This document shows positions 1-49,039 of a stretch of 64,000 nucleotides of DNA, piece after piece. The notes beneath the pieces were generated by a model, which saw only the letters and a list, made by a program, of their open reading frames with translations, was not told where the DNA came from and ran no database searches. Made by a program: the position numbers and the translations under genes. The stretch is from IMG/VR virus record IMGVR_UViG_3300042449_001328, positions 1-64,000 of that record, one strand, 5' to 3'. Source of the DNA: a virus. Within the stretch, counting starts at the first letter, position 1. Each line of letters opens with the position of its first letter.

Positions 1-187
1 TGCAGGAGAATTGTTGTATCAGTTCTGCGTCCTGATCATCTAGTATCAGATCAAAAGTTTCATCCAATATCCTATCGTCTTTTGCCTCAATAACACAATA
101 GTTATTGTCACCTATATTGAATACCTTGTTTGGTTTAAGCCAAGTGTGAGCAAGATTGTTATCTATTAGGTATTGCGAAATATTCAT
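1..187 (-). CDS. 5' part of a gene running off the window (MNISQYLIDNNLAHTWLKPNKVFNIGD...); possibly a replication gene such as a DNA polymerase
   Basis: Open frame from ATG at 187, overlapping the integrase stop (ATGA), to the window edge. Function guessed only from its position after helicase/primase. Confidence 0.55.
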   Translation of the reverse strand, partial: MNISQYLIDNNLAHTWLKPNKVFNIGDNNYCVIEAKDDRILDETFDLILDDQDAELIQQFSC

Positions 188-996
188 ATTGGCAATTGAA
201 CTTTGGATAATAATTTAGTGGATACATGTGTGTAAATTTCAGTGGTTTTTACATTACTATGCCCTGCTATCTTTTGTATCAACCTTAAATCAGTACCATT
301 TTCTAACAGGTGGGTAAATGAAGAATGCCTTAAATTATGGATACTGGTTTTTGTATCAATGTACTTTTTGTAAATCTGTTGACAGCTTCCTATTGAATAT
401 TTGGGTGAATTCTGGCCATTAAATAAAAATTCTACTGGTTTGTAATTTACAAAATAAAATCTAAGTAGCTTTAATACTGTTTCTGACAATGGAACTATTC
501 TATCCTTTCTACCTTTTGCATTGTTTATATGAATCAACATTCTTTTTGAATCAATATCGTTTATTTTTAAATTAACAATTTCTGACACCCTTAGCCCTAC
601 TGAATAAGCTAGGGTTAGTATCGTCTTATGTTTTAAATTTGGTATAATAGCTATCTTTCCTATTAAATCTTGTTGGTCTATTACCCTAGGCAACTTCTTT
701 TCGCCACGGGGTCTTTTTAGTTTATAAAATTTTTTAGGTTGAGATAATATCTTTTCATAATAAAACTTGATGCAATTAATGATCTGATTTTGTTTTGTTG
801 AAGACAATTCGCCATTGTCCAATAATTTATTCAAATAACCAACTATCTCATCATAAGAAATGTGCCTTACATTTTTATTTTCAAATGAGTTTACAAATTC
901 CTTAAAATAAGACAAATAAACTTTTATAGTGTTTTCTGAATAATTCATTCGTTGAAGTGTGGTAACATAATCTTCAAACAACTTTAAATTTTTCAT
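184..996 (-). CDS. Tyrosine recombinase, integron-integrase-like (SAM-like N-terminal domain plus catalytic domain)
   Basis: Catalytic residues R (GLRVSE), K (AKGRKDR), HxxR (HNLRH), H (AGH), Y (TEIYTH); N-terminal YSENTIKVY. No obvious IntI-specific insertion before box II. Confidence 0.92.
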   Translation of the reverse strand: MKNLKLFEDYVTTLQRMNYSENTIKVYLSYFKEFVNSFENKNVRHISYDEIVGYLNKLLDNGELSSTKQNQIINCIKFYYEKILSQPKKFYKLKRPRGEKKLPRVIDQQDLIGKIAIIPNLKHKTILTLAYSVGLRVSEIVNLKINDIDSKRMLIHINNAKGRKDRIVPLSETVLKLLRFYFVNYKPVEFLFNGQNSPKYSIGSCQQIYKKYIDTKTSIHNLRHSSFTHLLENGTDLRLIQKIAGHSNVKTTEIYTHVSTKLLSKVQLPI

Positions 997-1018
997 ATAG
1001 GATAGTGTTGGTAATCAA

Positions 1019-1213
1019 TTAGTTAAATGGACATTGATATATATGATTGTTGGTGGCAATGCCGCCCCGCTCCAATGGTGCTTCGGGCATGGAAGCTATT
1101 CCTAGCACCGCCCACGCTTCGGGGCGGCACTGTTCGCGCCAACGCGCAAAGGCCGACCCAAGCCCACCAACATGGGGTTTAAAACATAGGGCAACATTTA
1201 GCGCGTTTTTCAT
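1019..1213 (-). CDS. Small cassette ORF (starts in the loop of site 1, crosses the core as ...KPHVGG...)
   Basis: 64 aa ORF with the same geometry as the other cassette ORFs; GC-rich, coding status uncertain. Confidence 0.35.
   Translation of the reverse strand: MKNALNVALCFKPHVGGLGSAFARWREQCRPEAWAVLGIASMPEAPLERGGIATNNHIYQCPFN
1031..1062 (+). other. Putative attI-like primary recombination site
   Basis: Lone GTT core (GTTGGTGGCAATGC at 1049) just upstream of the integrase start, with no preceding hairpin arm. Its complement CCACCAAC (1164-1171) closes the first cassette. Confidence 0.55.
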
Positions 1214-1867
1214 AGGTAGTTTCGTGGGAAGGTTTTAGAATTAATTGCCGCCCACGCGCGAGAAAGAGATAACCCAAACAAACGGGTTTTCATTCCATGA
1301 TTGTTGACCGTTGACTTTTTCCCATAACATTTGCCATGCAAGTTTAGGTGTACTGGATGTTGGTGAGCAAGCCCCTTCCTTGTAGCAATCAGCAATAGAA
1401 ATACCTTGCAGTTTTTCTGCGCTTATATCTTCAATCCTTAACTTTATTCGGCAAGCCTGTTTTGGCATAAAAATGCTTGGTTTCCATCTCCACTCTTCCA
1501 TAGTTTCCCAATCAGGGTCTGTGGCCCTGTAAACATATCCGTTATCTTCTCCAGCAAAATCAACGTATTGCCATGTTTCACGCACCCAAAGTATGTCTCC
1601 AATTTGTCCGTATGGGCATTGTGTTTTGATTGATTCCCACCACTTCGGGTTACTGGCGGTTTCCATCCATCCACGAAACGGTTCCTTTACTATCCTTCTT
1701 GTTTGTGTTTTGCTGCCATCTAAAATAGCCCTTACCATTGACCCAGAAAATAAAATTGGGTGTTCCTTTGCCCGCCCTTCGGCAATTAATTCTAAAACCT
1801 GTTCGTTTTCCATAGTTATTTTATCTGTTTAGTTGCCCTACGATTTTAAACCCCTTATACATTATGC
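1165..1867 (+). repeat. attC-like site 1 with a giant (~635 bp) loop
   Basis: CACCAAC 1165-1171; arm GGGGTTTAAAACATAGGGCAAC 1174-1195 pairs with GTTGCCCTACGATTTTAAACCCC 1832-1854; ATTATGC 1861-1867. Confidence 0.75.
1241..1813 (-). CDS. ASCH/PUA-like phage protein
   Basis: EHPILFSGSMVRAILDGSKTQTRR, CPYG..GD.LWVRETW, WKPSIFMP and W..NPFVWVISF motifs of a widespread phage family. Confidence 0.8.
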   Translation of the reverse strand: MENEQVLELIAEGRAKEHPILFSGSMVRAILDGSKTQTRRIVKEPFRGWMETASNPKWWESIKTQCPYGQIGDILWVRETWQYVDFAGEDNGYVYRATDPDWETMEEWRWKPSIFMPKQACRIKLRIEDISAEKLQGISIADCYKEGACSPTSSTPKLAWQMLWEKVNGQQSWNENPFVWVISFSRVGGN

Positions 1868-2092
1868 GTAATGCTCCGAATACTTCTGTTCAAGTTCAAG
1901 CATTTTATCCCATATCTCTTGGTGGTGGACACTATCCCAAGCACATAATCTTGGACTTTTCTTTTTCTCTTGCAAAAATGCTTTCAGTTCATTGTAACAA
2001 TTAGCACTACGCATAACATCGGCTATACGCAATTGCTCTTCGTATTTTTCAACGGTTTCTTTTGCTTTTAAGTAATCTTCTTTTTTTATCAT
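1862..2092 (-). CDS. Cassette hypothetical protein
   Basis: 76 aa; start lies in the loop of site 2; stop lies in the ATTATGC core. Confidence 0.7.
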   Translation of the reverse strand: MIKKEDYLKAKETVEKYEEQLRIADVMRSANCYNELKAFLQEKKKSPRLCAWDSVHHQEIWDKMLELEQKYSEHYA

Positions 2093-2141
2093 TTTGTTTA
2101 ATTTTTAAGTTCGCAACTGCGTATAGCCGTAGCCGTTAGGC
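2011..2141 (+). repeat. attC-like site 2
   Basis: GCATAAC; CGGCTATACGCAATTGC 2020-2036 / GCAACTGCGTATAGCCG 2113-2129; GTTAGGC 2135. Confidence 0.85.
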
Positions 2142-2145
2142 ACAA

Positions 2146-2385
2146 TTAAACCCAACTCTTCCAATGTGTAGGTGTGTAATAAACATACATACTACCATCA
2201 GGCAACCACCAAAGTTTACCATCAAACTTTAATTCTTGTTCGTTCCTTGAACCGTTTTCATCTTCAATTTTGGTCATCATCACCCTATTTTTTGGTGGAT
2301 GCTCTTCTGAAATTTTTTTCCACATAATAAAATTAACTGTGCCTAACAACGTATATAATGGATACGCCAATAAGCGGTTATACAT
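2146..2385 (-). CDS. Cassette hypothetical protein (DUF551-like, W.....PP...PTHW)
   Basis: MWKKISEEHPP...YTPTHWK resembles the phage DUF551 family; the true start may be the internal Met. Confidence 0.65.
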   Translation of the reverse strand: MYNRLLAYPLYTLLGTVNFIMWKKISEEHPPKNRVMMTKIEDENGSRNEQELKFDGKLWWLPDGSMYVYYTPTHWKSWV

Positions 2386-2434
2386 TTATTTAAGTTTATC
2401 GGTGGCGTACCCATCATATACGCAACCGTTATAG
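2341..2434 (+). repeat. attC-like site 3
   Basis: GCCTAAC; CGTATATAATGGATACGCCA 2350-2369 / TGGCGTACCCATCATATACG 2403-2422; GTTATAG 2428. Confidence 0.85.
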
Positions 2435-2457
2435 GAAATTTTATTTTTCCCATCGCA

Positions 2458-2808
2458 CTACGAAAAGTGCGAGAAAATGAACAGATAAGGTTCTGCAATT
2501 GGTTCATCTTCTTTCAGCTCAAAAACTTCACGGTATTTTGATTTTACCTTTTCTGCGTCTAAATTTTTGAAATCCAAGTGGACAAAATCCCATCCTTCAT
2601 ATTTATCTCCACCGCTTTCAATCCGTATTCCAAATACGTTATATTGTCCACACATTCCATCGCTTACAAGTGTAAATTCTTCGCCTTGATGTCCTTCAAT
2701 CATTGGCAAAAATTTATCATCCGATAAATCAATTTTACCGTTTTCGTTTTTTAGTTCATAAGGTAATTTATACCCGTAAACAATGTAATCTGTTCTATCT
2801 ACTCCCAT
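2458..2808 (-). CDS. Cassette hypothetical protein
   Basis: 116 aa ORF filling the cassette between sites 3 and 4. Confidence 0.75.
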   Translation of the reverse strand: MGVDRTDYIVYGYKLPYELKNENGKIDLSDDKFLPMIEGHQGEEFTLVSDGMCGQYNVFGIRIESGGDKYEGWDFVHLDFKNLDAEKVKSKYREVFELKEDEPIAEPYLFIFSHFS

Positions 2809-2850
2809 TTTTAAATTTGTTTAAGCCAACCCACAAAAAATAAAACTATC

Positions 2851-2947
2851 CTATAACACGGGTTTGGCGTAATGCCACCAGATAGTTTGTGCCTAAATTT
2901 AAAGTTCGTGCAAGGTGGCACTAACGCCAAGCCCGAAATCGTTAGGC
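2851..2947 (+). repeat. attC-like site 4
   Basis: CTATAAC; CGGGTTTGGCGTAATGCCACC 2859-2879 / GGTGGCACTAACGCCAAGCCCG 2914-2935; GTTAGGC 2941. Confidence 0.85.
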
Positions 2948-2960
2948 ACAATAAAATTTG

Positions 2961-3185
2961 CTACCCAACGCACTCCCATTCAACATCAGGAAATTGTTCA
3001 GCAAATCTTTGTTTCTCCTCTGCCTGTCCCTGCTTTACTTCTTTCAATACCTGTTCTTTTGGTATTTCTAAACTTGGCTTATAATTGCTTATACAAAATG
3101 GGTTTCCAGCCCACAAGTTCCAATATTTACGCCCTTTCTTTAACCATGCGTAGTCAGCTATTTGTTCAAATCCTTTAAAATTCAT
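2961..3185 (-). CDS. Cassette hypothetical protein
   Basis: 74 aa ORF filling the cassette between sites 4 and 5. Confidence 0.7.
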   Translation of the reverse strand: MNFKGFEQIADYAWLKKGRKYWNLWAGNPFCISNYKPSLEIPKEQVLKEVKQGQAEEKQRFAEQFPDVEWECVG

Positions 3186-3204
3186 AATCGCAAATTTTAC
3201 AGAT

Positions 3205-3296
3205 GCCTAACATGCGGTAAAAGTAAGCCGCAGAAAGGCTGTTACTAAATTTGAGCAGTCTACAAAGCGGCCTACTCTTACCGCCAACCGTTAGTG
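3205..3296 (+). repeat. attC-like site 5
   Basis: GCCTAAC; GCGGTAAAAGTAAGCCGC 3214-3231 / GCGGCCTACTCTTACCGC 3267-3284; GTTAGTG 3290. Confidence 0.85.
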
Positions 3297-3302
3297 GTAA
3301 TG

Positions 3303-3524
3303 CTATAAACACACACCATTAAATGTGTTCAAATAGTTTTTGAACTTTATATAAACATCAAGCATATCGTCAACATGTATTTGTTGCTTATCAAAAACTA
3401 TTTTAGCACTACCTGTATCTAACACAACATTTGGTGGTGTTACCGTAAAAGCACTACCACTAACAGCAAGTATATTCAATTGCTCACTTTCTTGGTTATT
3501 TTCAATTTTATCTTTCATACCCAC
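3303..3524 (-). CDS. Cassette hypothetical protein
   Basis: 73 aa; start in the loop of site 6; crosses the arm and core as QLNILAVSGS. Confidence 0.65.
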   Translation of the reverse strand: MGMKDKIENNQESEQLNILAVSGSAFTVTPPNVVLDTGSAKIVFDKQQIHVDDMLDVYIKFKNYLNTFNGVCL

Positions 3525-3590
3525 TCTTATTTGTTAATTAAACTTTTGTTTTTCAAAGTCGCAACTAATTATACTTGCAACTCGTTAGCA
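3458..3590 (+). repeat. attC-like site 6
   Basis: CACTAAC; GCAAGTATATTCAATTGC 3466-3483 / GCAACTAATTATACTTGC 3561-3578; GTTAGCA 3584. Confidence 0.8.
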
Positions 3591-3594
3591 GCCA

Positions 3595-3846
3595 TTAAGG
3601 TAGCGTTTCCAATTCATCGTGACTAAATGTTAAACAAGCTATTGTCCCTTGCGGCACTTGTGGACAAAACTCACCCCACATATTCCATGCCTTGCCATCT
3701 TTTGCAACCACTTGACAAGCAATGAATCTATCATCAGGCAATCCTTCAAGTGCCTTTTTAAGAGTTCCAACCGTATGAAAATTAACGGCTGCTAACACAT
3801 TATTTGCGTCAGTGGGGGTTTCGTGCTTTTTAGAATCTGTCTGCAT
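3595..3846 (-). CDS. Cassette hypothetical protein
   Basis: 83 aa; start in the loop of site 7; crosses the core as DANNVLAA. Confidence 0.7.
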   Translation of the reverse strand: MQTDSKKHETPTDANNVLAAVNFHTVGTLKKALEGLPDDRFIACQVVAKDGKAWNMWGEFCPQVPQGTIACLTFSHDELETLP

Positions 3847-3922
3847 AATTTAAAAATTTGTACTGTTAATAATCTTTGGTGGTGTAACGCCCCACCGAAC
3901 GCAAATAATCGTAACGTTACCT
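3790..3922 (+). repeat. attC-like site 7
   Basis: TGCTAAC; ATTATTTGCGTCAGTGGGG / CCCCACCGAACGCAAATAAT (ends 3909); GTTACCT 3916. Confidence 0.8.
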
Positions 3923-3929
3923 GCAAGTG

Positions 3930-4142
3930 CTACATTTCGGTTTCAAATAAACTTGGTGCAGAAAAACTTTTATTAAAATTTCCCACTCTCTTATTTATAA
4001 TTTCAAAATACTTTTCGTCAATCTCATAACTCACAGTATCAAAACCTAATTCATTTGCAACTTTGCTTGTCGTTCCGCTTCCTCCAAACGGGTCAATAAT
4101 TGTTTCGCCTTCCTTTGCAGTTATCTGTATAAGATGGGTGTT
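3930..4142 (-). pseudogene. 5'-truncated DNA N4/N6-methyltransferase fragment
   Basis: Manual translation IQITAKEGETIIDPFGGSGTTSKVANELGFDTVSYEIDEKYFEIINKR...ETEM* (motif I DPFxGSGTT); in-frame stop upstream and no start codon. Confidence 0.8.
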
Positions 4143-4253
4143 TCAAACGCCCCCGCGCTGGTTTAATTTTAAAAAAGTTTTAGTTTGTATTTCATATTTA
4201 AGTTTGTGCTATGCCTGTTTCAGCAGCTACACTTGATACATTAGTGGCAAGTG

Positions 4254-4412
4254 CTACATATTGCTATCCAAAAGTTTTATGCTTCTGTATATCGGTATAA
4301 ATAAAAGCCAATAGGTTGTTACAAGATGTACCTCTAAATGAGATTTATCTTTAAAACCAGCATCAAAACTTTTCACATACATTTTTCTTTTGTGTTCTGT
4401 TCTTTTTATCAT
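4254..4412 (-). CDS. Small cassette protein (52 aa, below the ORF-track cutoff)
   Basis: MIKRTEHKRKMYVKSFDAGFKDKSHLEVHLVTTYWLLFIPIYRSIKLLDSNM* fills the cassette 4240-4444. Confidence 0.65.
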   Translation of the reverse strand: MIKRTEHKRKMYVKSFDAGFKDKSHLEVHLVTTYWLLFIPIYRSIKLLDSNM

Positions 4413-4437
4413 TTTCGTTTAATTTAACCGCACCAGC

Positions 4438-4571
4438 CACTAACATTGCATTGCAAAAAGCAGGGCTGACGTAATGCTTTCAACAATGGGAATACTATTA
4501 AACTTCACCTATAACGCATTGGGCAGACGTATTCCAATTCCCCTGCCTTCTGCAATGCTTTGCCGTTAGCG
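4438..4571 (+). repeat. attC-like site 9 (site 8 survives only as a right half, ATTAGTG at 4240)
   Basis: CACTAAC; GCATTGCAAAAAGCAGGG 4448-4465 / CCCTGCCTTCTGCAATGC 4541-4558; GTTAGCG 4565. Confidence 0.85.
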
Positions 4572-4577
4572 GCAACC

Positions 4578-4793
4578 CTAAACGACCGCAGTAAACGTGG
4601 TTAAAGATTTACGAACGGTTACTTCTTCGCCTTTTTCGACTTCATTGTAAGCAAGAATAGCTTTTGCCTTTCCTTTGGTAATTATACCACTTGCCCAAGT
4701 TTCATCTTGATGGGTAAGTTGCATTCTAAATTTCCCTTTTCGTTGAGATACTACATCGTAAATCTTTCCAACTTCTAAATTTTGATTTTCCAT
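4578..4793 (-). CDS. Cassette hypothetical protein
   Basis: 71 aa ORF filling the cassette 4565-4828. Confidence 0.7.
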   Translation of the reverse strand: MENQNLEVGKIYDVVSQRKGKFRMQLTHQDETWASGIITKGKAKAILAYNEVEKGEEVTVRKSLTTFTAVV

Positions 4794-4899
4794 TTTATTT
4801 TGATTTGTGAAGAAGGGCAGCCGCTAACAACGTGCTTGTGCCATTTAAAAATGCGTCAAAGTTCAGTGCCTTTAATCAAGTTCGGTGAGCAAAATAAAT

Positions 4900-5289
4900 T
4901 TAAACAACCCCACCGCACTCCTTCGTAGAAAGTTCGTGTTGCAATTGAAAGTACACGTCAAAGAGTAATTCAATTTCCTTTGCCCGTTCGACAATTTTTC
5001 CTTGTATAATCTCACGGAACTTGTCATAGTTTTCAGGCTCTATTTTATTATGCCAAGAGTGTTTCCATGTGTCCATATCAATTACTATTTTGATAAGTTC
5101 TTTTAAGGGGTCATCACCAAAACAATTTGGTTTCTCCCACCTTAATTCAAACCCGTCTTTGATAATGTACTCTTTGTCTCCTGAAAACGGTCTTACAATT
5201 TCGTAACGTTTCGCAGTCCCTTCAATTGTTGTACCTCTAAGGCCAACACCAATTTTACTAAGTTGGTTGATAAATTCTAAATGATCCAT
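4900..5289 (-). CDS. Hypothetical protein in the array
   Basis: 129 aa ORF. Confidence 0.7.
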   Translation of the reverse strand: MDHLEFINQLSKIGVGLRGTTIEGTAKRYEIVRPFSGDKEYIIKDGFELRWEKPNCFGDDPLKELIKIVIDMDTWKHSWHNKIEPENYDKFREIIQGKIVERAKEIELLFDVYFQLQHELSTKECGGVV

Positions 5290-5608
5290 CGCTCAAGTTG
5301 TTTAAATTTATTTTGTTTAGTATTTCAAATTAATATCGTGACACACAATCCAAAGCCTTGCTATCCGTGCCTAGTTTCGGGTTGGGTGCGCCAGCTGCTA
5401 ACAACGTGTTTGCCTCATGGCTGAAAGTGCTATTTGATATTTTTGTTTTCATCTATAAAATTTATCTGTTCAAAAATCTATCCGTTACCCACCGCATTAG
5501 AAACTACTAACTCATTTCCGGTGTGCTTCGTTTCTTTTTCCACTTGGCGGTATCATGTCTATTTTGCGCTTTACTCATCTCTATTTATTTAGTTCGTGTT
5601 CGGCCATT

Positions 5609-5863
5609 TTACTGACACATATTTGCGGCTACATTAGTTGTAATTCTACTCAACACCATTCTGTTTAAGATACTCATTGAACATACCTTTCTTTTAAGTC
5701 CTTCAATCATATAATCTTCTAACTGCTTGTTAAGTTGAGAAGAAAGCCTACCTATAACATCCGCTATAAGAATATTTGTTCTTTCTGCATTCATTGGTTG
5801 TAATTTAAAGTTAAGTAGTTCTAAATCCGCGTAATTGAAAAAGCGTCTGAGTTCGTATTTCAT
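5609..5863 (-). CDS. Probably chimeric or degenerate cassette ORF
   Basis: Crosses core 5752 as ILIADVIGR; the flanking cores are not complementary. Confidence 0.35.
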   Translation of the reverse strand: MKYELRRFFNYADLELLNFKLQPMNAERTNILIADVIGRLSSQLNKQLEDYMIEGLKRKVCSMSILNRMVLSRITTNVAANMCQ

Positions 5864-6008
5864 AAGTCAGTCCATATAGGTGTAGCCACAAAATTGTAAT
5901 CTCAATCGTTTACTTTTACAAAATGAGAATCGCCAGTCATTTTCATCAAAGCCGTAAAGGTCTCCTCTGTAAAGAATAAACTCGCATAGCCACTTTCCAT
6001 CTTGGTTA

Positions 6009-6224
6009 CTACAACAAAGGAATTTTGTGTATAAGTGTTTCATAATTTCGTTTACATTTGTTAGTGGCAGTTAACTCACCGCCAACATTGTGTTTGAGTA
6101 ATTTTCGTTCACGTTCCAAAACAACAGCTTCATCAAGTAATGAAACTATATATCTAACATCAATCATTGATACTTCGCCAATTTCTCCAGCTATCAATAT
6201 TTGTTCTTTAGTATATTTTTTCAT
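6009..6224 (-). CDS. Array-distal small ORF coupled to the primase stop
   Basis: ATG overlaps the primase TGA; crosses the cores as HNVGGELTATN. Confidence 0.55.
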   Translation of the reverse strand: MKKYTKEQILIAGEIGEVSMIDVRYIVSLLDEAVVLERERKLLKHNVGGELTATNKCKRNYETLIHKIPLL

Positions 6225-7195
6225 AAATAATCTAAGTTTATTTGCATAAAATTAACACTTTTTGTCATAAGTTCCAATGATTGTTCCTCATTTATATCTC
6301 CAGGGTCAAATCCGTTTAAATGAGCTACCCTTACCTCAAAATGGGTTGATAGGTATGCAGCTATTGTTTTTACTTTATCCAAAACGTCAGCTTCAAACCA
6401 TAACCAAATGACAGTCAAGCCTTTATCCTTTAGTAGTTGAACTTGTTGTTCACTTATCTTAGCACCAAATGTAGCCACGCACTTTAACCAATCTTGAGTG
6501 TGTAACTGTAGATTATAATCTGTCTTTGTCTTTGACAATATACCTTCCACTAGGATTACATCAGTTGTTTTGCCTTTTATTATTTCATCGTATCCAAACA
6601 GCATTTTACTGAAATCACTCATCGAGTTCTCATAACGTAGGTACTTTTTGCCCCCTGTTTTTTTTATTTCTTCATTGTAAGCATCTATCCATGCTTTGCT
6701 TTTTATAGACCTTGACACATATCCTGTTATCTTGCCTTCCATTTCAACTAGGAAAGTAATGTAGTCTTTCTTTAGTCTTGATACTCCTATCTTATATTGC
6801 TCGAATTGATAGGACTGCATTCCTCTTTCGTTTTGAAGATATTCGTTTTCAAATACCCTCTTCCATCCTACAGGAGGTTGAACTTCTGGTAATTCTTGTT
6901 GCTGTATTATGTCTTCACTTGTTTCAAATACATCTAGCAATAATCCTTCTGGGTCTATTTCTCTTTCTTGTACAAATTCTTTAAATTTATTTAAGTGTTT
7001 TAAAAGTGTGTATATATTCCCCGTGAAGCCACATTTGGACTTTCTGAAGCAACTGAACGGGTGGTTATTTTCTACAATAGAAATTCCAAACTCATCATGA
7101 CCACACTGAGGGCATAACCCGTAAATATCTTTACCGTCAGAACTGGGTCTTGGATTGGATATGAGTTGCTGCAACTGGTCTTTTGTGAGTTTCAT
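6221..7195 (-). CDS. DNA primase (Zn finger + TOPRIM)
   Basis: CPQCG...C...C zinc finger; VILVEG TOPRIM motif; DPGD. Confidence 0.85.
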   Translation of the reverse strand: MKLTKDQLQQLISNPRPSSDGKDIYGLCPQCGHDEFGISIVENNHPFSCFRKSKCGFTGNIYTLLKHLNKFKEFVQEREIDPEGLLLDVFETSEDIIQQQELPEVQPPVGWKRVFENEYLQNERGMQSYQFEQYKIGVSRLKKDYITFLVEMEGKITGYVSRSIKSKAWIDAYNEEIKKTGGKKYLRYENSMSDFSKMLFGYDEIIKGKTTDVILVEGILSKTKTDYNLQLHTQDWLKCVATFGAKISEQQVQLLKDKGLTVIWLWFEADVLDKVKTIAAYLSTHFEVRVAHLNGFDPGDINEEQSLELMTKSVNFMQINLDYL

Positions 7196-7422
7196 TGCTC
7201 TAATATTCTCTTGTTAACAATTAAACAAGCATTTTCAAAAGTAAAACCTTTGTCTATTAAATCTTTGCGAAAACATCGCTTTTCTAAAACTCGTTTTGCT
7301 GATTCACTCCGTTCTCCCAAATCTAAGTTTGCGATGGCTTGTAGTCTTTCAGGGCTTCCCATACTACCAATACTGTTTATGTAGCTGTTGATGCTACCGT
7401 ATTTTTCAATTAAATGATCCAT
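7192..7422 (-). CDS. Hypothetical protein
   Basis: 76 aa, coupled to its neighbours. Confidence 0.6.
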   Translation of the reverse strand: MDHLIEKYGSINSYINSIGSMGSPERLQAIANLDLGERSESAKRVLEKRCFRKDLIDKGFTFENACLIVNKRILEQ

Positions 7423-7424
7423 AA

Positions 7425-7868
7425 TTATTGTTTGCTTAATTTTGTTTCATTTGATTTTATTCTAACTTTTAAGCTGTGTAGTGGGCATGTTACCCATCCA
7501 TCGCTATCGCATTTTTCGTTTGACAAATCGTATCCTTTATGTGGACATTTTAATTTTTCTAAATTTTTGTAATTTAATTTTGAATTAGATATAAAGGTGT
7601 CTGGTGTTCTATACAAATGTTCTTTAAAATACATCCTTCTTTTTCGGTAACATATTTTTATTAAAAAATTTGGATCGTTTTCAATTCTAGTGGTATTTAT
7701 TTTTTTCAATAAATTCTTATGATGTTTTTTGCTTATAAACCTAAAATCTACATGATAGTGTGGTGTCATTTGACCGTTCTCTTTATCGTGATGCAAATGA
7801 TTGTATATAGGCACAATTAGCCTTTCAGGAAAAGATAATACAGCGCAAGGGACTTTGTGTTTTATCAT
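7425..7868 (-). CDS. Protein with a C-terminal Rieske-like [2Fe-2S] motif
   Basis: CPHKGYDL...VTCPLH (CxH...CxxH). Confidence 0.65.
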   Translation of the reverse strand: MIKHKVPCAVLSFPERLIVPIYNHLHHDKENGQMTPHYHVDFRFISKKHHKNLLKKINTTRIENDPNFLIKICYRKRRMYFKEHLYRTPDTFISNSKLNYKNLEKLKCPHKGYDLSNEKCDSDGWVTCPLHSLKVRIKSNETKLSKQ

Positions 7869-9250
7869 TTTTGCTTTGGAGCGTTCTTTATTATCTTGTT
7901 ATTGATGGGGTCCCAAAATCTTTTGTTGGTCTCTTGTATGTCTATAAATCTGCCTTTATTTCTATCTTGTGCTATATGATAAGTAGATTCCCATGAAAGT
8001 ATTTTTTGAAACCTGAATGCCTCTTCATGTATGCGCATTATGTCTTTATCATTTTCATCGTCTGTTTGATTTAAAGTAATTGTATAAGCAAAGGGGTCTA
8101 CTGTAGCTTTTAAATTTGAAATATTCTCTCTTGTGATAACAAAATTAGGATCGTTGTAATCTTTTTTCTCTATACTAGATGCTTGAGTGGCAGTGGCGCA
8201 AAATATTTTAAACTCAGTTGCTATGTTGACAATTTTTTCCGCAACAGCTAATTTTTTAGCCCTCTCCCCCTCTGCATTAGTTCCATATCTCTTTCCGTCA
8301 CCTGGATCAAATTTTTCAAGATAATCAAAAATTGCCCATTTTATATTATACTCCTTCATTAAATCCAATATAGCTTGCCTACACTCTGCTATGGAAGCAG
8401 AATTAAATTGTTCATAAGAAACAATGAATATTTCCCCACATTGAGCTAGGAAAGATTTTCTAGCCTTTTCAATAGTCTCTACATCTTTGCCTGTCAAATC
8501 CCCTTTCCTTATATCCATCATAGGCACACCAGTCCACATTGCATCATAAGCATCTTCAACTTCTGATTTTGTACCTTCAGCTTGAAAATGAATTCCATTA
8601 TGCCCCCTGAAAGCCAAATTGTGACCTATTGATCTCAAACAAGTACTTTTACCTACTCCTTTTCTAGCAATCACTAACATTGCCCTTCCAGGTTCAACCC
8701 CTCCCTTAGTGTGATAATCAAAAGCAGGTATGCCAATAGGCCACTTTACATTTGTAAAATCCCTTTGCTTTCTTTCTTGTTGCCGTCTATCAAAATCAGA
8801 AAATACTCTAGTGTGAAGTTTTGAAGTTAAACAAAATGAGTTTATCTCTTTGCTCTCCTTCTCAAGCAGCAACATAGCTTTCTCATGTTCCTGCTTATTG
8901 TACATCTCCTTAACGTCTTCATGTAGTTTTTGAAACCTGCCTTTCTTGATGAAAGATTCAAAGGACTGCATGATCTGGTCTTTACTATCATGTATTGAAG
9001 TTTCCCTAATGTTGTTCAGTACATTTATCAAGGAAGGTTTTTGAGGCAAGTTTTGAGATAATGTCCCTAAAGTAGGGATTTTTGAATGTATGCCATGATA
9101 GTCAAATATGTATTTAAAAACTTCTTTATACTCCTCTCCTTTTATGAAAGAATAATTCAAATGCTGTTTGACAATCTCTGTCACATCTTGACTAGATAGA
9201 CATAGCTTTGCCAGCTCGTTGAGATAGTTGCTTGAAAGTTTATCTGACAT
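7865..9250 (-). CDS. Replicative DnaB-like helicase
   Basis: Walker A ARKGVGKST, catalytic E in QAEG, Walker B IFDYLE, TATQ. Confidence 0.88.
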   Translation of the reverse strand: MSDKLSSNYLNELAKLCLSSQDVTEIVKQHLNYSFIKGEEYKEVFKYIFDYHGIHSKIPTLGTLSQNLPQKPSLINVLNNIRETSIHDSKDQIMQSFESFIKKGRFQKLHEDVKEMYNKQEHEKAMLLLEKESKEINSFCLTSKLHTRVFSDFDRRQQERKQRDFTNVKWPIGIPAFDYHTKGGVEPGRAMLVIARKGVGKSTCLRSIGHNLAFRGHNGIHFQAEGTKSEVEDAYDAMWTGVPMMDIRKGDLTGKDVETIEKARKSFLAQCGEIFIVSYEQFNSASIAECRQAILDLMKEYNIKWAIFDYLEKFDPGDGKRYGTNAEGERAKKLAVAEKIVNIATEFKIFCATATQASSIEKKDYNDPNFVITRENISNLKATVDPFAYTITLNQTDDENDKDIMRIHEEAFRFQKILSWESTYHIAQDRNKGRFIDIQETNKRFWDPINNKIIKNAPKQK

Positions 9251-43508: not shown

Positions 43509-44237
43509 TTACCCTGTTATTACGATATTATGAAGTCTCCTTAATTCCCTTGCCACTACACCAGCTTCTCTTTGGTCTACACCCAAAGCACCTGCTATCT
43601 CAACTGTTGAAGCGGCTTTTGCAAACATATTGTTCTCGTTGAAGTCATTGCCAGCTGCTTTTACCAAGGCTTCTACTACTTGTTTTTTGTTTCTTGAGAT
43701 TGATAATTCTAGTTCCCCTTCTTGTTTAGAAGCAAAGCGATCCACAAAATTTTGTGTAGTGATCGACTTAGGGCCTGGGTTAGCTTTTGATAAAGCGTTG
43801 ATTGTTTCTTTGATCTCATCCAAAGATTTCTTTAGATCGTTGTTTTCTTGTTCTTTGCTTGACAATAAAGTTGTCATGGCTTCAAACTTTGAATCGTATG
43901 ATTTAACGATTTCAGAAAGTTCTGCTTTAACAAGTTCTTGGGTTTCTGCTTTGTCGAATTTTTGAACAACCGTTCCCACGTTAGGCATTTCCTTTCCAGA
44001 AACTATTTCGCCTTCTTCAGGACCCATTGTAACAGAAGCTATTTTAGCTTTGATTTCTTCAGCCTTTTTCATGTACTCGTTGCCTTTTTTAAGGCACTCA
44101 CTCATTTCGGCTTTCATTTTTTCAATCTCGTCTTTCGACATGCCTTTTACAATTTCTTGTTCAGGTTCAGCTTTAATTAAGCCTAGGGCTTGCTTTGCTA
44201 TTAATATAGACTCTTCTGAAATTTTAGTAACTTCCAT
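43509..44237 (-). CDS. Scaffold-like protein
   Basis: Coiled-coil, many hydrophobic-x-K-[AGS] sites; between protease and capsid genes. Confidence 0.7.
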   Translation of the reverse strand: MEVTKISEESILIAKQALGLIKAEPEQEIVKGMSKDEIEKMKAEMSECLKKGNEYMKKAEEIKAKIASVTMGPEEGEIVSGKEMPNVGTVVQKFDKAETQELVKAELSEIVKSYDSKFEAMTTLLSSKEQENNDLKKSLDEIKETINALSKANPGPKSITTQNFVDRFASKQEGELELSISRNKKQVVEALVKAAGNDFNENNMFAKAASTVEIAGALGVDQREAGVVARELRRLHNIVITG

Positions 44238-44299
44238 ATTTAGATTTTTGAAATCTTTTTATTCGTTGAAATTAAAAATACTTAAAAAAAATATATGTT

Positions 44300-45166
44300 T
44301 TAAACTTTGGATTTCTGATCAATAATATTCACAAGCTCCCAGAATTTATCACAACTGTCTTTATCCATGTTGTGTTCTTGTACTAGGTTGGAGTATAGTT
44401 CCCCTTTTGAAAACATATAACCTTGTTTCTTTTTCTTTCTTGGATCAATTCCGTTTACGCTTTCAGTTTGAGTTACTCCACTTGAAGCCGCTGCTGTTGA
44501 TGCTGTTTGAATTCCTTCTGCTTTCCAGATTTTGATATTGAAGTCTTTGTCGATTGTCCTTCTTACTCCTTTGTCATCTGTTACGTCAACTAAATAAGGT
44601 GTGAATTCACCTCCGTTATTTACATTCATGTCGGCTTTTTCAAAGTCATAATGAATATCTTCAAAACCGCCTTTCATGATTTCCATTTTTGTCCCCTTGC
44701 ATTTTGGACTTGGTGTGATGGCTACGGCACTCAATTTTGACTTTAGGATTCTATTTTTATTTTTAGGGTCTCTCTGGAGTGCTTTCCCTTCAATGCTGAA
44801 GCCAAGACGTCTTGTGTCACTATCTCTTTCCAATATCTCACCCAAATCATATACGCTACGTGCTGTTTGACTAGATGGGTACAGTTTTCCTTCAATATAT
44901 AAATCACCATCTTTTACTTCAGCTTTTGTAGGTTCGCCTATAATAGCTAGTGGATCTTTGGTCCAGAGATGATGGAAATTTAAGGTGCCTCTTGCAAGCA
45001 AATCTGATAAATCCATTCCTTCTGGTTCAAGAGTTTCACCATCGCTATCAACGCCTTGTTTAGTAGTACTGGCAATTCCCTTTATGCGCATGTTTTGATA
45101 TTTATCAGTGCCTTCGCCGCCTTTTTCTATTTCAAAAGGAATGAATATTGAAAATTTATCTTCCAT
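44300..45166 (-). CDS. Prohead protease
   Basis: IKGIAST...DSDGE, NFHH, IGEP, LGFSIEG, VAIT.SP motifs. Confidence 0.9.
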   Translation of the reverse strand: MEDKFSIFIPFEIEKGGEGTDKYQNMRIKGIASTTKQGVDSDGETLEPEGMDLSDLLARGTLNFHHLWTKDPLAIIGEPTKAEVKDGDLYIEGKLYPSSQTARSVYDLGEILERDSDTRRLGFSIEGKALQRDPKNKNRILKSKLSAVAITPSPKCKGTKMEIMKGGFEDIHYDFEKADMNVNNGGEFTPYLVDVTDDKGVRRTIDKDFNIKIWKAEGIQTASTAAASSGVTQTESVNGIDPRKKKKQGYMFSKGELYSNLVQEHNMDKDSCDKFWELVNIIDQKSKV

Positions 45167-45192
45167 CTCTATTTTATTTTTATTTTAAATTA

Positions 45193-46686
45193 TCAAACAA
45201 CTGCTATTTCATAATACGTTCCTTGATTTCTTTCTAGTAAGAAAGCATCCGCATTAGAGATTGAACTATTAAATAGAATTGCCTCTCCGATAACTCCAGC
45301 ACCAGCTCCATTGCCTAAAGGACTTCTTGCTCCTATCGTCAAGTTGCCCGCAGTGCTACTCTCTCCCCCAGAACCAGTCGCTCGTACAACCCCGTTTGTT
45401 CTTATATCATTCGCGCCAGCTGCGTATCTTCCAGTTGCAATAGAGTATGCGTTATTAGTAATATCTCCGTTGGATATATCCGCACCTGTTGTGTAACGCC
45501 AGTTAGTCGAACCAGATGGGCCGCCTAATGACCTTAGATTTGTGACTGTTGCTGTACTGCCCAATAGTGAAAAAAAATCCCTATCTGATGTTACTTCTGA
45601 ACGAGCCAAAACGTTCATTGTTTGTGGATTAGCTCCCCATAAGCTTGCATCTGCCGAGGTAGCCGTGTTGAATAACCATGTTGTAGCACTGAAGCGTATA
45701 ACAGGTTTGGTATTTTCAATATTTACTACACCACTCGTTACTATTTGTGGCTGGTTCCCTGCTGTTGTTTGGGTTGCGTTAAATCCATTTATTGATTGGT
45801 CGTACCAAGTCCTTACAAATCCGTTACCTTGGTTGGCTGTGGCTACTGTTTGTCGATATGTTTGAGCGGTTGCCCCTAGAGTTACTTGAGCACCCCATAC
45901 GTATTTATTATGCCCAACCGTTCGAGTGGCATCATTATCTGCTGCGGCACTTGCAATAAGTGCTGCGTAGTCGGTTACCAAGGGAATACTACCTGTAATA
46001 GACACCCTATACCATCCACCCCCCACATTGGTTATTGATGAGCTAGTATAAATTGCAACGCCTATAGCGTCCGCAGTTCCTATTGTCCCAGTGTCTAAGT
46101 TTACCCAACACCTAAATTGATTGCTTGGGCTTGTTATATGATACACACCAACTCTAACCCAAGTTCCTACAGTCGCTTTTTTAAGATATACCGAATGTGT
46201 AACCGTTAGCCCTAATGATAATCCAGCTATTGCTTGAGTTCTTGCACTATTTGTTGATGTACACGTTGTTAAATCAGCAGTCATCTGACCATTTGGGGCT
46301 AAAGCGGCGTTTGTTGTAACTGTTTCACCTGCTCCTGATAATAAATCCCACGCGACATTTTCGAACTGTTCTGAATAGGTCAATAAGTTCTGATACCCCA
46401 CGTGATTCATTAAATCCACTTGGTCTAAATCACCACTGGACGTAAACCCAATATTTGCCTCAGCATTATCTATATCCCTGCGTACTCTAATAGCATTACC
46501 TGTATAAGCATTTCTTAGTCTCCTTAATGAGTAAGCAGCAGAAGATTGAATACTTATTAAATCTAATGGGGTTAGTGGTATTGTTAAACTTTTATATAAA
46601 GTATATGGGGTAAAAATATTTACCGAAGTTGGTTTTTTCTTATCCTTAAAAGCAATTGTCATTGCTGACATTCTGTTTATTCTCAT
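45193..46686 (-). CDS. Virion protein with lectin/LamG-like and carbohydrate-binding domains
   Basis: AAYSLRRL...YTGNAIRVRR, NLL.YSE.F...W, GGGWYRVS, WYDQS.NG..ATQ. Confidence 0.7.
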   Translation of the reverse strand: MRINRMSAMTIAFKDKKKPTSVNIFTPYTLYKSLTIPLTPLDLISIQSSAAYSLRRLRNAYTGNAIRVRRDIDNAEANIGFTSSGDLDQVDLMNHVGYQNLLTYSEQFENVAWDLLSGAGETVTTNAALAPNGQMTADLTTCTSTNSARTQAIAGLSLGLTVTHSVYLKKATVGTWVRVGVYHITSPSNQFRCWVNLDTGTIGTADAIGVAIYTSSSITNVGGGWYRVSITGSIPLVTDYAALIASAAADNDATRTVGHNKYVWGAQVTLGATAQTYRQTVATANQGNGFVRTWYDQSINGFNATQTTAGNQPQIVTSGVVNIENTKPVIRFSATTWLFNTATSADASLWGANPQTMNVLARSEVTSDRDFFSLLGSTATVTNLRSLGGPSGSTNWRYTTGADISNGDITNNAYSIATGRYAAGANDIRTNGVVRATGSGGESSTAGNLTIGARSPLGNGAGAGVIGEAILFNSSISNADAFLLERNQGTYYEIAVV

Positions 46687-46730
46687 AAACTTTTATATAT
46701 TCCCACAGTTATTAAAAATACTAATTTTAA

Positions 46731-48869
46731 CTACACTATGTTTAAATCGCTCACAAACGACTTTAAAAGCTCATTGTTCTCTTTGAAGAATTGATCTATC
46801 AATGGCTTTATTTTGCTGTTAAATACCTCTTTAGATACATGATTATCATCTTTGTGGTATGGAACACCAACGCTTTTATATTTTACAACATCTTCGCCTT
46901 CAACATTGACCGCATGATACTGCTCCAAAGCTCTGGCAAAACATTCACAAGTTCTGTTCACATAATCGCTATCTGTCTTTTTGTTCAAATTATTTCTGAA
47001 TGTATTGGCTATTTTCCCAGCAAGTGAATTAAAATCATCTGACGCATAATGTCTGTTTTTTGAATTACCCAATTGATTGTCTAAGAAGTGAGCAAATTCA
47101 TGAGCTAAAGTGAACCCAAACTTGCCATTTTCTTTATTGTCGCTTACACCGATTGCTTTCATTGATGGGTAATATAAACCTAAAGCATTTCTGGCGTGCA
47201 TCATTTTATCCCCACTGTGGCTTATCTTTAGGCCAAACTTTTTCGATATTGATGACCTGTCCCCAAATGATTTGTAAACTTCGTTCAATGAATTTTTTAT
47301 CTGCTCAATTTGCTGCTCTTTTATTTCTTTTCCGTTTTGCAATTTCACTTTCACTCCATGACTGTCAAGTAAAGTGTTTTTTGTCCCAGAGTCACCGTAA
47401 CTGGTCTCCCTGCCTTTATCAAAACTAGTGTTGTTCTCTTCTCTCTGTATACGTAAATCTTTTTTCCTCCACTGCAATTGATCTCTAACCTCTTTATACT
47501 CAATGACACAAGGATCATCGTAACTGTACGATCTTTTGCCCATATCAAAAGGGGTTTTGTAATCCTTGTTTACAAATTTTTTATACATGTCAAAATTAGA
47601 TTTCAACATACTGTTTTCATCTAATTGGCTTATCCTTTTGCCAGTAGGCAATTGGACAGGGGAATTTTTCATGTCTGGTATCTCTGCTATCTTTGCCTCT
47701 TTTGGCAAACCCTCCCATTGTTCCTTAGTGTATTTTTTCTTCTGTTTTTCAGAAAGCCTTTTATCATAATCAAATGGATAATACATTTTTATTTTTTCAT
47801 CACTCCATTCTGCTACTCTGGCCAGTATTTTCTTTGTTTCGTTTTCTTTCTTTTTGGCAATGATCGCTTTTGCAGTTTTTTGATAATAGTCTTGCATTGC
47901 TACCATTTGGTCTATCTGAACAACTGCATATTCTGATATATGGTTGTTCAATAATGCTCTATTATCTTCTTCCCATTTATTTTTATCAGAGTATTCATAT
48001 TTTTTGCCAGATATTTCTATTGCGTATCCATCTTTTTCATTGCCCCACACATTTGTTGGTGAATCTAACTCCAAGTAGCTGTACTTGCCATCAAGTATAT
48101 CCCTTTTCAACTGTTCGTTGTTCAGCTTATAAGAAGATGCTGTTTTATTATATCCATTTGTGGCCAACAAATAGGTATCATCACTTAATTTCACATAATC
48201 AAAAACAAAATTGTCCAACTTCCTTCCTGCAAAAACTGCAAGGTTTATATCTGGACACCAATTTGGTTTAGGCTTATCCAAAATACCTTCTTGTTCCACA
48301 AGCTGTATGTCCATTTGACTAATCAAGGTATAATCCAAGGCTTGTATTTTTTCACCCGATCTGGTTGTAAATTCCTTTACCTCAATATTGCTTTTTTGCT
48401 CTCCCTGTTTCTCTATGGTGTTGCTTACTGGAAGTTCACCGCTCTCTTTGCCAAACAGTTCTTTAACTGCCTTAAACCTGTTGCTTTCAGTAACATTGTT
48501 AATTATTTCAGAAGAATTTTCAACTGGAGGTATGCTTATCTCGCTTTCTGGCACTAGGGTATTGTTAACTTCATAACCTGCTTTATTATCAATAATTGAT
48601 ACACCACTTACCTCAAGTTCTTTTCCGTCAACCGTGACGTTAGTACTAACATCAACTAAATTCTTTAATTCTTTTGCTTGTTCTTTCTGTACAGTCTCTT
48701 GATATGTTTCTTCTGGCATTTTTGAAATCAAATTGGACATGATTTCTTCTTTTGCATTTAACGGGAAAATCCAACCCCCAAGGGTCTTGTTCCAACTACC
48801 TATACCAACATCTGATTTTATTTTTCTCAGCAATTCTAAATTAGCATAAGTGTTGCCTGTTATAAGCAA
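46731..48869 (-). CDS. Large polyvalent-type protein with a C-terminal zincin (LPD1-like) domain; frame stays open upstream to about 49075
   Basis: TLAHEFAHFLD...ECFARALEQY. The annotated TTG start is doubtful. Confidence 0.75.
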   Translation of the reverse strand: MLITGNTYANLELLRKIKSDVGIGSWNKTLGGWIFPLNAKEEIMSNLISKMPEETYQETVQKEQAKELKNLVDVSTNVTVDGKELEVSGVSIIDNKAGYEVNNTLVPESEISIPPVENSSEIINNVTESNRFKAVKELFGKESGELPVSNTIEKQGEQKSNIEVKEFTTRSGEKIQALDYTLISQMDIQLVEQEGILDKPKPNWCPDINLAVFAGRKLDNFVFDYVKLSDDTYLLATNGYNKTASSYKLNNEQLKRDILDGKYSYLELDSPTNVWGNEKDGYAIEISGKKYEYSDKNKWEEDNRALLNNHISEYAVVQIDQMVAMQDYYQKTAKAIIAKKKENETKKILARVAEWSDEKIKMYYPFDYDKRLSEKQKKKYTKEQWEGLPKEAKIAEIPDMKNSPVQLPTGKRISQLDENSMLKSNFDMYKKFVNKDYKTPFDMGKRSYSYDDPCVIEYKEVRDQLQWRKKDLRIQREENNTSFDKGRETSYGDSGTKNTLLDSHGVKVKLQNGKEIKEQQIEQIKNSLNEVYKSFGDRSSISKKFGLKISHSGDKMMHARNALGLYYPSMKAIGVSDNKENGKFGFTLAHEFAHFLDNQLGNSKNRHYASDDFNSLAGKIANTFRNNLNKKTDSDYVNRTCECFARALEQYHAVNVEGEDVVKYKSVGVPYHKDDNHVSKEVFNSKIKPLIDQFFKENNELLKSFVSDLNIV

Positions 48870-49039
48870 AGATTTATCTGAATATCTTGTAATTTTTAAA
48901 TCTAGTTTTGTATCCAGGGATTCGCCTAGTGGTAAATTTTCTTCTATCTTATCAGTACCTACCTCTCGGTACTGATAAAATGTTTTACCGCCCCTCTGTA
49001 CTTTTATGTATTCGTACCTTTTGCCTTTTTGGATAGTGT

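Follow-up and report, generated by a model that had tools for sequence, protein, structure and literature searches.

Organization of the locus

The DNA examined here is the first 64,000 nucleotides (nt; hereafter the window) of a single contig of 89,689 bases, IMG/VR virus record IMGVR_UViG_3300042449_001328, and the subject is an integron-like array of about ten cassettes at positions 997–5400, next to a gene for a tyrosine recombinase. The long open reading frames (ORFs) are all on the minus strand, as are those of the array. Labels assigned from PHROGs include tail sheath, DnaB-like helicase, primase and virion protein; the contig thus represents all or much of a phage genome. The public runs that contain the stretch are lake-water and freshwater metagenomes. 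A first-pass annotation, made from the letters alone, had proposed that the two ends of each cassette are complementary to each other, that the two cores of a single site are not, and that this is a footprint of past shuffling.

Read on the plus strand, a site of the array consists of TAAC, 1–3 nt, a stem-loop-stem, 5–6 nt and GTTA. Seven clear sites, all of one polarity, were recovered with a simple site finder, and no other such array was found in the 89.7 kb. The 15 nt before a hairpin are here called the end arm (R'') of a cassette, and the G of GTT together with the first 14 nt of the cassette its start arm (R'); the inner stem is L''/L'. The features, with ORF lengths in amino acids (aa), are as follows.

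184–996, minus strand: tyrosine recombinase of 270 aa, Xer/IntI-like (Pfam Phage_integrase and SAM_4)
997–1049, plus strand: attI-like junction, an AT-rich conserved motif ending at G|TT (G = 1049), from motif comparison
1050–1861, plus strand: cassette 1, a GC-rich 123-nt segment (1049–1171) and a giant hairpin enclosing ORF 1241–1813 (minus); last base A
1862–2135, plus strand: cassette 2, arms 1861–1874 / 2004–2017, hairpin 2018–2134, ORF 1862–2092 (minus), which starts in the loop
2136–2428, plus strand: cassette 3, arms 2135–2149 / 2333–2347, hairpin 2348–2427, ORF 2146–2385 (minus)
2429–2941, plus strand: cassette 4, arms 2428–2448 / 2837–2857, hairpin 2858–2940, ORF 2458–2808 (minus)
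2942–3290, plus strand: cassette 5, arms at 2941 / 3204–3211, hairpin 3212–3289, ORF 2961–3185 (minus)
3291–3584, plus strand: cassette 6, arms 3290–3304 / 3450–3464, hairpin 3465–3583, ORF 3303–3524 (minus), which starts in the loop
3585–3916, plus strand: cassette 7, arms at 3584 / 3782–3796, hairpin 3797–3915, ORF 3595–3846 (minus)
3917–4240, plus strand: cassette 8, decayed, with the C-terminal remnant of a DNA methylase (3930–4142, minus); last base A
4241–4565, plus strand: cassette 9, arms 4240–4254 / 4430–4444, hairpin 4445–4564, ORF 4254–4412 (minus)
4566–5401, plus strand: cassette 10, arms 4565–4579 / 4814–4828, ORF 4578–4793 (minus), with a degenerate distal part comprising a half-site, ORF 4900–5289 and then an R''-type half-site (5395–5401)

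Each cassette has complementary ends

All 18 end strings of the first-pass annotation (nine of nine pairs) were recovered where it had placed them, with the match counts it gave: 8/8, 12/14, 14/15, 9/9, 8/8, 13/14, 14/15, 12/15 and 13/15. Its description of every cassette as starting at G^TT applied to seven starts, but at 1861 and 4240 the first base is A. The extension of the matches beyond the 7-bp canonical core was general, reaching 15 nt in own-end pairs across related arrays, but the 1049/1164 pair stops at 8 nt.

A permutation test, called for in advance, was performed on the window with 15-nt arms, scoring positions 4–15. Own ends matched at 88 of 108 positions (mean 9.8/12), a total reached by one of 200,000 random re-pairings, and the eight pairs of cores flanking one hairpin averaged 3.9/12, in agreement with the proposal that these do not pair. 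A cassette's own end was the strict best partner of its start in seven of nine rows; the exceptions were 1049 and 2941, the latter having an arm that resembles that of 2135/2347. Circularisation at G|TT in silico lowered the folding energy, as had been predicted, in each of the six hairpin sites tried, the gain being 4.0–12.7 kcal/mol whichever strand was folded; the set skipped the interval 3796–4240, which was too long, and did not include the 690-nt interval 1171–1861. In folding, the minus strand equalled or surpassed the plus strand at five of six array sites and at six of six circular junctions.

The comparison was extended to 59 non-duplicate related arrays, yielding 261 unique own-end pairs and 351 same-hairpin pairs. 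Own-end pairs matched at 0.69–0.89 per position over positions 5–10 and 12–15, and same-hairpin and shuffled pairs at 0.26–0.60; past position 15 the own-end match dropped to ∼0.4. None of 2000 family shuffles reached the observed mean of 7.79/11, and a first pool of 28 arrays had given the same pairing picture. Chance as the source of the matching is ruled out by the window permutation and the family shuffles, and the end matching is confirmed as real and far beyond chance.

The circle with a perfect site envisaged in the first-pass annotation was reproduced in part: own arms are complementary over 15 nt, but position 11 is mispaired in 249 of 261 pairs (a match of only 5%). In the start arm this position is A in 97% of 371 sites, and in the reverse-complemented end arm it is G in 199 of 261, T in 31 and C in 17. 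With A facing G in this way, a T·G pair is possible on the bottom strand and an A·C pair on the top strand. The sites are asymmetric in a second respect, the unpaired spacer being 1–3 nt on the R''–L'' arm and 4–6 nt on the L'–R' arm in the same 371 sites, a difference of 3 or 4 nt in 349 of the 371 unique sites of the family. An A follows AAC in 99% of these sites, and a C precedes GTT in 95%. Folding sites with R''/R' and L''/L' pairings between AAC and GTT, as in integrons, are thus present at seven window sites and 371 unique related ones; inner stems were found ungapped by a finder that allowed no bulges, so that bulges deeper in the stem could escape it.

Homologous cassettes were compared for changes in their arms. 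Between the window and loci L236 and L237, the cassette at 4565 has two changes in its start arm, at positions 7 and 12, each matched by a change at the complementary position of the end arm, with no single change. Further compensatory comparisons were L176/L225 (positions 9 and 10), L197 or L200 against L017 (5–8) and L225/L001 (5 and 6). Because of these double changes, the pairing is considered to be under selection. It could instead be a pure relic, the arms matching only because each cassette entered as a circle and any pairing beyond a 4–7-nt core being functionless and in decay. The imperfect pairs of the window (12/15, 13/15) and its decayed cassettes 1, 8 and 10 point that way, as does the own-end complementarity of only 8, 8 and 5 nt in three class 1 cassettes, a small sample from one array; a relic is nevertheless difficult to reconcile with compensatory double changes in four independent comparisons, with a position 11 that is kept as a mispair and has not drifted, or with the level of matching in the 261 pairs when the recombinases are only ∼50–60% identical, and we regard it as improbable. 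The matching ends are consistent with the proposed footprint of shuffling insofar as an origin from circles is supported, but on these comparisons the own-end pairing is selected and is more than a footprint.

Cassette boundaries and evidence for shuffling

Segments shared between arrays were collected by comparing all arrays with one another after removal of near-duplicates (at least 150 bp, at least 90% identity, both ends internal; n = 68). Left ends fell at GTT (−20 to +1) in 23 cases, at AAC in six and elsewhere in 39. Right ends fell at GTT (+0 to +12) in 18, at AAC (−5 to +10) in two and elsewhere in 36, the others lying slightly before AAC (five), just before GTT (five) or at GTT+13 to +25 (two). 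Eleven of the 68 segments span one GTT to the next, and 29 have both ends away from any detected site, mostly in backbone genes or at sites that the finder missed. Among the 22 segments of at least 96% identity, six run from GTT to GTT and one begins and ends near AAC.

The clean cases are L001/L010 (100% over 315 bp), L019/L163 (99.8% over 512 bp) and L006/L020 (99.4% over 495 bp), in each of which the left hairpins differ and the right hairpin is common. From these boundaries the mobile unit is a gene segment together with the hairpin to its right, bounded by G|TT on the window plus strand. What had been annotated as the cassette end does pair with the start, but it is the R'' arm of the cassette's own site and not its last base. 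The expectation that homologous cassettes would be bounded at the GTT core was borne out by the preference for GTT over AAC at both ends and by the cassette at 4565, which breaks at the G. These shared boundaries support the view that each unit would have been a circle opened at G^TT, and a crossover at G|TT, as in integrons, is indicated by comparison only.

Loci L010 and L176 have six cassettes in common, at 96.6–100% identity, arranged a,b,c,d,e,f in the first and b,c,a,d,f,e in the second. The different order is direct evidence of shuffling, and bears indirectly on excision and insertion that would depend on the recombinase. The same cassette was also found with different neighbours, as had been anticipated: the cassette at 4565 recurs in L236 and L237, with left contexts that are unrelated among the three sequences; its DNA homology (89% and 87%) covers window positions 4565–4832 and 4564–4832 respectively, starting at the G of GTT. 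Hairpin families recur with unrelated genes, at up to 98.7% identity (L020/L053).

The recombinase and its link to the array

The catalytic motifs of the recombinase are present, at residues 134, 161, 220 and 245. Against NCBIfam it scored 186.6 bits to XerA_Arch, below the cut-off, and 161.6 bits to the integron integrase model TIGR02249 (cut-off 265), the latter match being split in two pieces. It aligned with VchIntIA (2a3v, Vibrio IntI4) at residues 14–175 and 213–267. Query residues 175–213 face residues 174–260 of that chain, so that 38 residues stand against 86, ∼48 fewer, and the IntI-specific insert is absent; the missing residues presumably include its place. Relatives of the recombinase are 254–300 aa long and occur at 45–63% identity in many viral and metagenome contigs.

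A motif of the type TATATAnnATA|GTTA lies ∼50–60 nt before the start codon of the recombinase in the window and in 23 of 23 related loci printed, and to its right the sequences of the related loci diverge. A conserved motif with divergence to its right is the expected appearance of an attI junction. In 50 non-duplicate loci with at least 2.5 kb upstream of a recombinase relative, at least three sites were found upstream in 30 and at least one in 45, with 226 sites oriented as in the window and four opposite; downstream of the recombinase relatives there were only two sites in 193 kb. An attI-like motif beside the integrase, with sites leading away from it in one polarity, is an integron arrangement. 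Because of this site polarity and the conserved motif, the start of the array is considered to adjoin the recombinase.

A DNA search of phage records with window positions 1–6200 returned only two short matches, of ∼60 nt each. The Polaribacter phage Freya series (integrase 36% identical; records of 43,978–48,920) was considered as a carrier of variable arrays and rejected, as no array was found in Freya_10 1–7000 or Freya_1 1–3000.

Xer/dif sites are duplexes with two conserved ∼11-bp arms around a 6–8-bp centre, and in module arrays such sites alternate in orientation; the pdif modules of Acinetobacter plasmids are an example. An exchange of this double-stranded kind, in which gene segments and hairpin inserts would move as separate modules, would suit a recombinase that is closest to the XerA type and has no IntI insert, gene segments that are shared without the right hairpin and have ends at GTT and AAC, and the whole ORFs that lie between the inner inverted repeats 1174/1832 and 4890/5297. 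It is not the pattern of these sites. Only TAAC-A and C-GTTA are common to the sites; the rest of each arm varies between sites, in step with its partner alone, which fits recognition of a fold; the sites share one polarity throughout and do not alternate; the G·T and A·C asymmetries tell the strands apart; and at 96% identity or more, segments from GTT to GTT outnumber those near AAC at both ends by six to one. Exchange between duplex sites thus seems an unlikely account of the array.

Gene direction and the bacterial arrays

In 22 phage arrays 26,626 aa are encoded antisense to the polarity of the sites and 2869 aa in the sense direction, so that a hairpin precedes its gene. A cassette polarity opposite to that described, with the genes in the sense direction, had been suggested by the all-minus ORFs; it was ruled out by the boundaries, the position of attI and the likeness to bacterial sites.

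Arrays of related build were found in Bacteroidota chromosomes: two of Flagellimonas (L108 and L114), one of Maribacter flavus (L085) and one in a Flavobacteriales metagenome-assembled genome (L078). They have a recombinase of equal length (41–49% identical) and share the site build, the loop asymmetry and the position-11 polarity. They differ in that the array lies downstream of the recombinase gene, in that the genes follow the site polarity (1690–2839 aa versus 0–374 aa per locus), and in having cores of GTTR/YAAC and not GTTA/TAAC. When the bacterial loci were scanned for the phage layout, no array was found on that side of the recombinase gene. The integron arrangement of a gene before its attC, read with the polarity of the array, is thus present in these four bacterial arrays and absent from the phage arrays. 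In Flagellimonas L114 (10964–20732) and L108 (11588–18448), a 167-nt segment and a 198-nt hairpin, nearly identical, are repeated at least six and five times respectively, with other cassettes interleaved.

The loop and position-11 asymmetries are concluded to be features of the DNA site and not of a transcript, because their polarity is kept where the bacterial genes run the opposite way. This bears on the possibility that the hairpins and long-range pairs are RNA-level elements, acting as terminators, processing sites or stabilisers, with shuffling by homologous recombination between repeated stem-loops. Such a system is described, in the accessible part of the source, for the PeSL cassettes of T4-type phages, promoter-plus-terminator repeats exchanged by recombination between the repeats (Arbiol 2010, PMC2839356). 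As far as that text goes, PeSL cassettes resemble the present ones in having small accessory phage genes between stem-loops, modular shuffling and mini-circles; the present arrays are set apart by a recombinase of their own, an attI-like site, break points fixed at GTT and covariation of the arms within each cassette. An RNA role would fit the observations that the better-folding strand in the phage is the mRNA-sense strand, that some ORFs start within loops and that hairpin families recur with different genes. As the sole explanation it is opposed by the asymmetries just described, by the tie of the arrays to a recombinase gene and an attI-like motif and by the break points, which lie no more than a few bases from GTT, between hairpins that are unrelated in sequence, and so argue against repeat-driven, PeSL-type exchange; we consider it very improbable. 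RNA and DNA roles of the hairpins are not exclusive and can coexist.

Other features of the window cassettes

The cores at 1861 and 4240 read ATT in place of GTT, and the bottom-strand triplet is AAT instead of AAC; for this reason both junctions are probably dead and the flanking cassettes fused. In cassette 8 no own R'' arm or hairpin was recognisable. Its minus-strand frame 3930–4142 has no start codon and encodes the C-terminal part of an N4/N6 DNA methylase with a DPFGGSGTT-type motif, a truncated cassette gene.

In cassette 1 the hairpin arms 1174–1195 / 1832–1853 are 22 nt long and 82% complementary. A second inverted repeat, perfect over 21 nt (1230–1250 / 1780–1800), lies inside this hairpin and overlaps both ends of ORF 1241–1813. 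Relatives of this 190-aa ORF occur ∼2 kb upstream of the recombinase in L033, L038 and L050. In the distal part of cassette 10, perfect 19-nt inverted repeats (4890–4908 / 5297–5315) enclose ORF 4900–5289 (129 aa), and genes may thus be carried in another manner as well, within the tips of hairpins. A contig of run X5 passes from 4905 to 5300 (the letters between are not known), as would be seen if only a palindrome stood there and no ORF.

The first segment, 1049–1171, is GC-rich within an AT-rich genome and contains no ORF of note. Its predicted fold is stable (minus strand −37.4 kcal/mol, plus strand −32.4), and an Rfam scan of window 1–8000 with E up to 1 gave no match, so the segment belongs to no known RNA family; no relative was found among the related loci compared. 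In lake metagenomes its summed contig depth is several times that of its neighbours, so that many contexts probably contain it. Runs X6 and X7 have a contig whose match starts at 1049 and is preceded by another sequence, one that ends in a typical spacer, which shows that the segment also occurs behind another left neighbour; stretches without cover in runs X7 and X8 were not counted as evidence. In contigs of runs X5, X6 and X7, 1172 is linked to 4173 and 3000 bases are passed over (the intervening letters are not known; shorter side 29–37 letters); these contigs also lack one base at 1148. The joint is possibly a relative in which the first segment stands directly before the hairpin half 4173–4239.

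When the array was compared with the first 69 viral loci by BLAST, hairpin families matched and gene segments did not. The hairpin family of cassette 6 gave DNA matches of 70–73% in L018, L019, L029, L032 and L044, and the hairpin of cassette 7 a match of 78% to L002. At the protein level the same loci matched only ORF 1241–1813 and 21 residues of one other ORF. ORFs 1862–2092 and 3303–3524 have their starts in a hairpin loop, and their frames continue across the inner stem and the R'' arm; because the hairpin family of the second is kept at 70–73% in other phages, the loop may supply its leader and first residues. The stop codons of cassette ORFs (2146, 3595, 3303, 4578 and others) lie in or just after the 15-nt start arm, at positions 2–4, 12–14, 14–16 and 15–17, and conservation of the arm may be partly shared with translation stops. 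The lengths from AAC to GTT at the 371 sites of related loci fall into three classes of ∼43, ∼83 and ∼120 nt, with few between.

Comparison with integrons and other phage arrays

Like a classical integron, the array begins at an attI-type junction next to the gene for a tyrosine recombinase. Its sites form imperfect palindromes that pair in an outer (R) and an inner (L) part and have conserved AAC and GTT, a crossover at G|TT is inferred, and the R' core within the array is a hybrid while own ends match. As in sedentary chromosomal integrons, hairpin families recur with different genes. Own-end matching is reportedly the logic by which Hall and Stokes, in the 1990s, deduced the G|TT crossover and the hybrid R' core; to that extent it is a known integron signature, rediscovered here.

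The window recombinase differs from those of classical integrons in its 270 aa and in having no IntI-specific insert, and the R stem is of 15 bp with a conserved mispair at position 11, where the classical one is of ∼7. In classical attC sites, as far as the accessible text of Nivina 2016 shows, a 7-nt R core is accompanied by spacers of 5–6 nt on both arms and by extrahelical bases near L''; cleavage is in the bottom-strand AAC, and a base bias favours folding of the bottom strand. The better folding of the bottom strand is a likeness, again within the limits of that text (Nivina 2016). Extrahelical bases near L'' and spacers of 5–6 nt on both arms were not found here, where spacers are of 1–3 and 4–6 nt and the finder allowed no bulges; the excess of 3–4 nt lies on the other arm from the classical one, and the phage genes are antisense to the site polarity. 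The array would work like an integron but departs from the classical type in three features, the IntI insert, the asymmetry of the site and the orientation of the genes.

In the accessible part of the IntegronFinder 2.0 report, only In0 elements and one complete integron are given for Bacteroidetes. Within the accessible text of Qi 2023, a survey of 10,705 phage genomes gave 17 CALINs (integrase-less attC clusters) and three complete integrons; IntI1 was shown there to recombine one attC of Polaribacter phage P12002L at G|TT, preferring the bottom strand. Phage P12002L contains at least six sites of the present build, on the plus strand among minus-strand genes that include methylases. The two studies have in common attC-type arrays in phage genomes, a Polaribacter phage and DNA methylase cassettes, as far as that text describes them. 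They differ in that the array type is there called integrase-less, whereas the arrays described here adjoin their own short recombinase and an attI-like motif. Matching ends, the position-11 feature and a general antisense orientation find no mention in the accessible text of Qi 2023, which refers only to 'divergent directions' in P12002L. In the literature outside subscription papers and supplements, no description was found of 15-nt matching arms, a position-11 mispair or short-recombinase integrons of Bacteroidota phages. What is new is in the detail: the length of the own-end stem (twice the classical core), one fixed non-Watson–Crick position in it, and its upkeep by compensatory change.

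Discussion

The array of the window is, in our judgement, quite likely to be a phage cassette array of the integron type, in which the neighbouring recombinase would act at G|TT on the bottom strand and the R stem would be formed by a cassette's own arms. A crossover at G|TT would cut out or insert a cassette, leaving the G with the left cassette and giving TTA and what follows to the right one. In the circular form, pairing of the 15 nt that precede the hairpin with the G and first 14 nt of the same cassette would create a long R stem that continues into the hairpin. Opening of the circle at G|TT would place the two arms at opposite ends of the gene segment. Cutting would be performed by the 270-aa recombinase, the predicted substrate being the folded bottom strand (the window minus strand), with the 15-bp arm as the recombinase-binding arm and the conserved mispaired T at position 11 as a mark of the strand. 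While the array DNA is single-stranded, a cassette's two arms might also pair over the intervening gene segment and, joined by the hairpin next to them, restore a full site at every crossover point.

Several observations weigh against this interpretation. Two of nine cassette starts read ATT. The homology of the 4565 cassette with L236 and L237 stops at 4832, 4 nt past AAC, and the right hairpin differs; L010/L019, L010/L018, L010/L170 and L163/L200 likewise share a gene segment as far as AAC+2 to +10 with a different right hairpin, mostly at 82–90% identity but at 95.9% in L163/L200. A single crossover at G|TT does not predict such segments, and genes and hairpins would therefore also have been re-associated over longer times by another route. 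One match of 98.7% (L010/L047) has non-matching ends. Arm differences between homologous units were compensatory in 18 cases and of other kinds in 78, a tally that is not a rate, as many of the 78 come from units joined or split wrongly by the site finder. Two window cassettes were tried by protein search and only one had relatives elsewhere (the 71-aa ORF 4578–4793, in five viral contigs; none in viral contigs for ORF 2458–2808). The recombinase, having no IntI-defining insert, could serve phage integration instead.

A wider reading, which we offer with some doubt, is that Bacteroidota and their phages possess a distinct class of integron. Its Xer-like recombinase, without the IntI insert, would read a 15-bp arm made only by a cassette's own ends; the mispaired T at position 11 would replace the extrahelical bases; own arms pairing across each gene in single-stranded array DNA would form three-way junctions with the neighbouring hairpin and so present complete sites for excision; and the phages would load cassettes backwards, so that the site hairpin becomes the 5' leader of the gene.

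The IntI insert is the domain thought to read the extrahelical bases of classical sites, and these arrays would offer a natural and simple system for asking how a plain Xer-type enzyme recognises folded single-stranded sites. The search rule of TAAC-A and C-GTTA with matching 15-nt arms should find arrays that have been filed as integrase-less or missed by standard integron surveys. For the phages themselves, the arrays show that they keep large private pools of swappable accessory genes.

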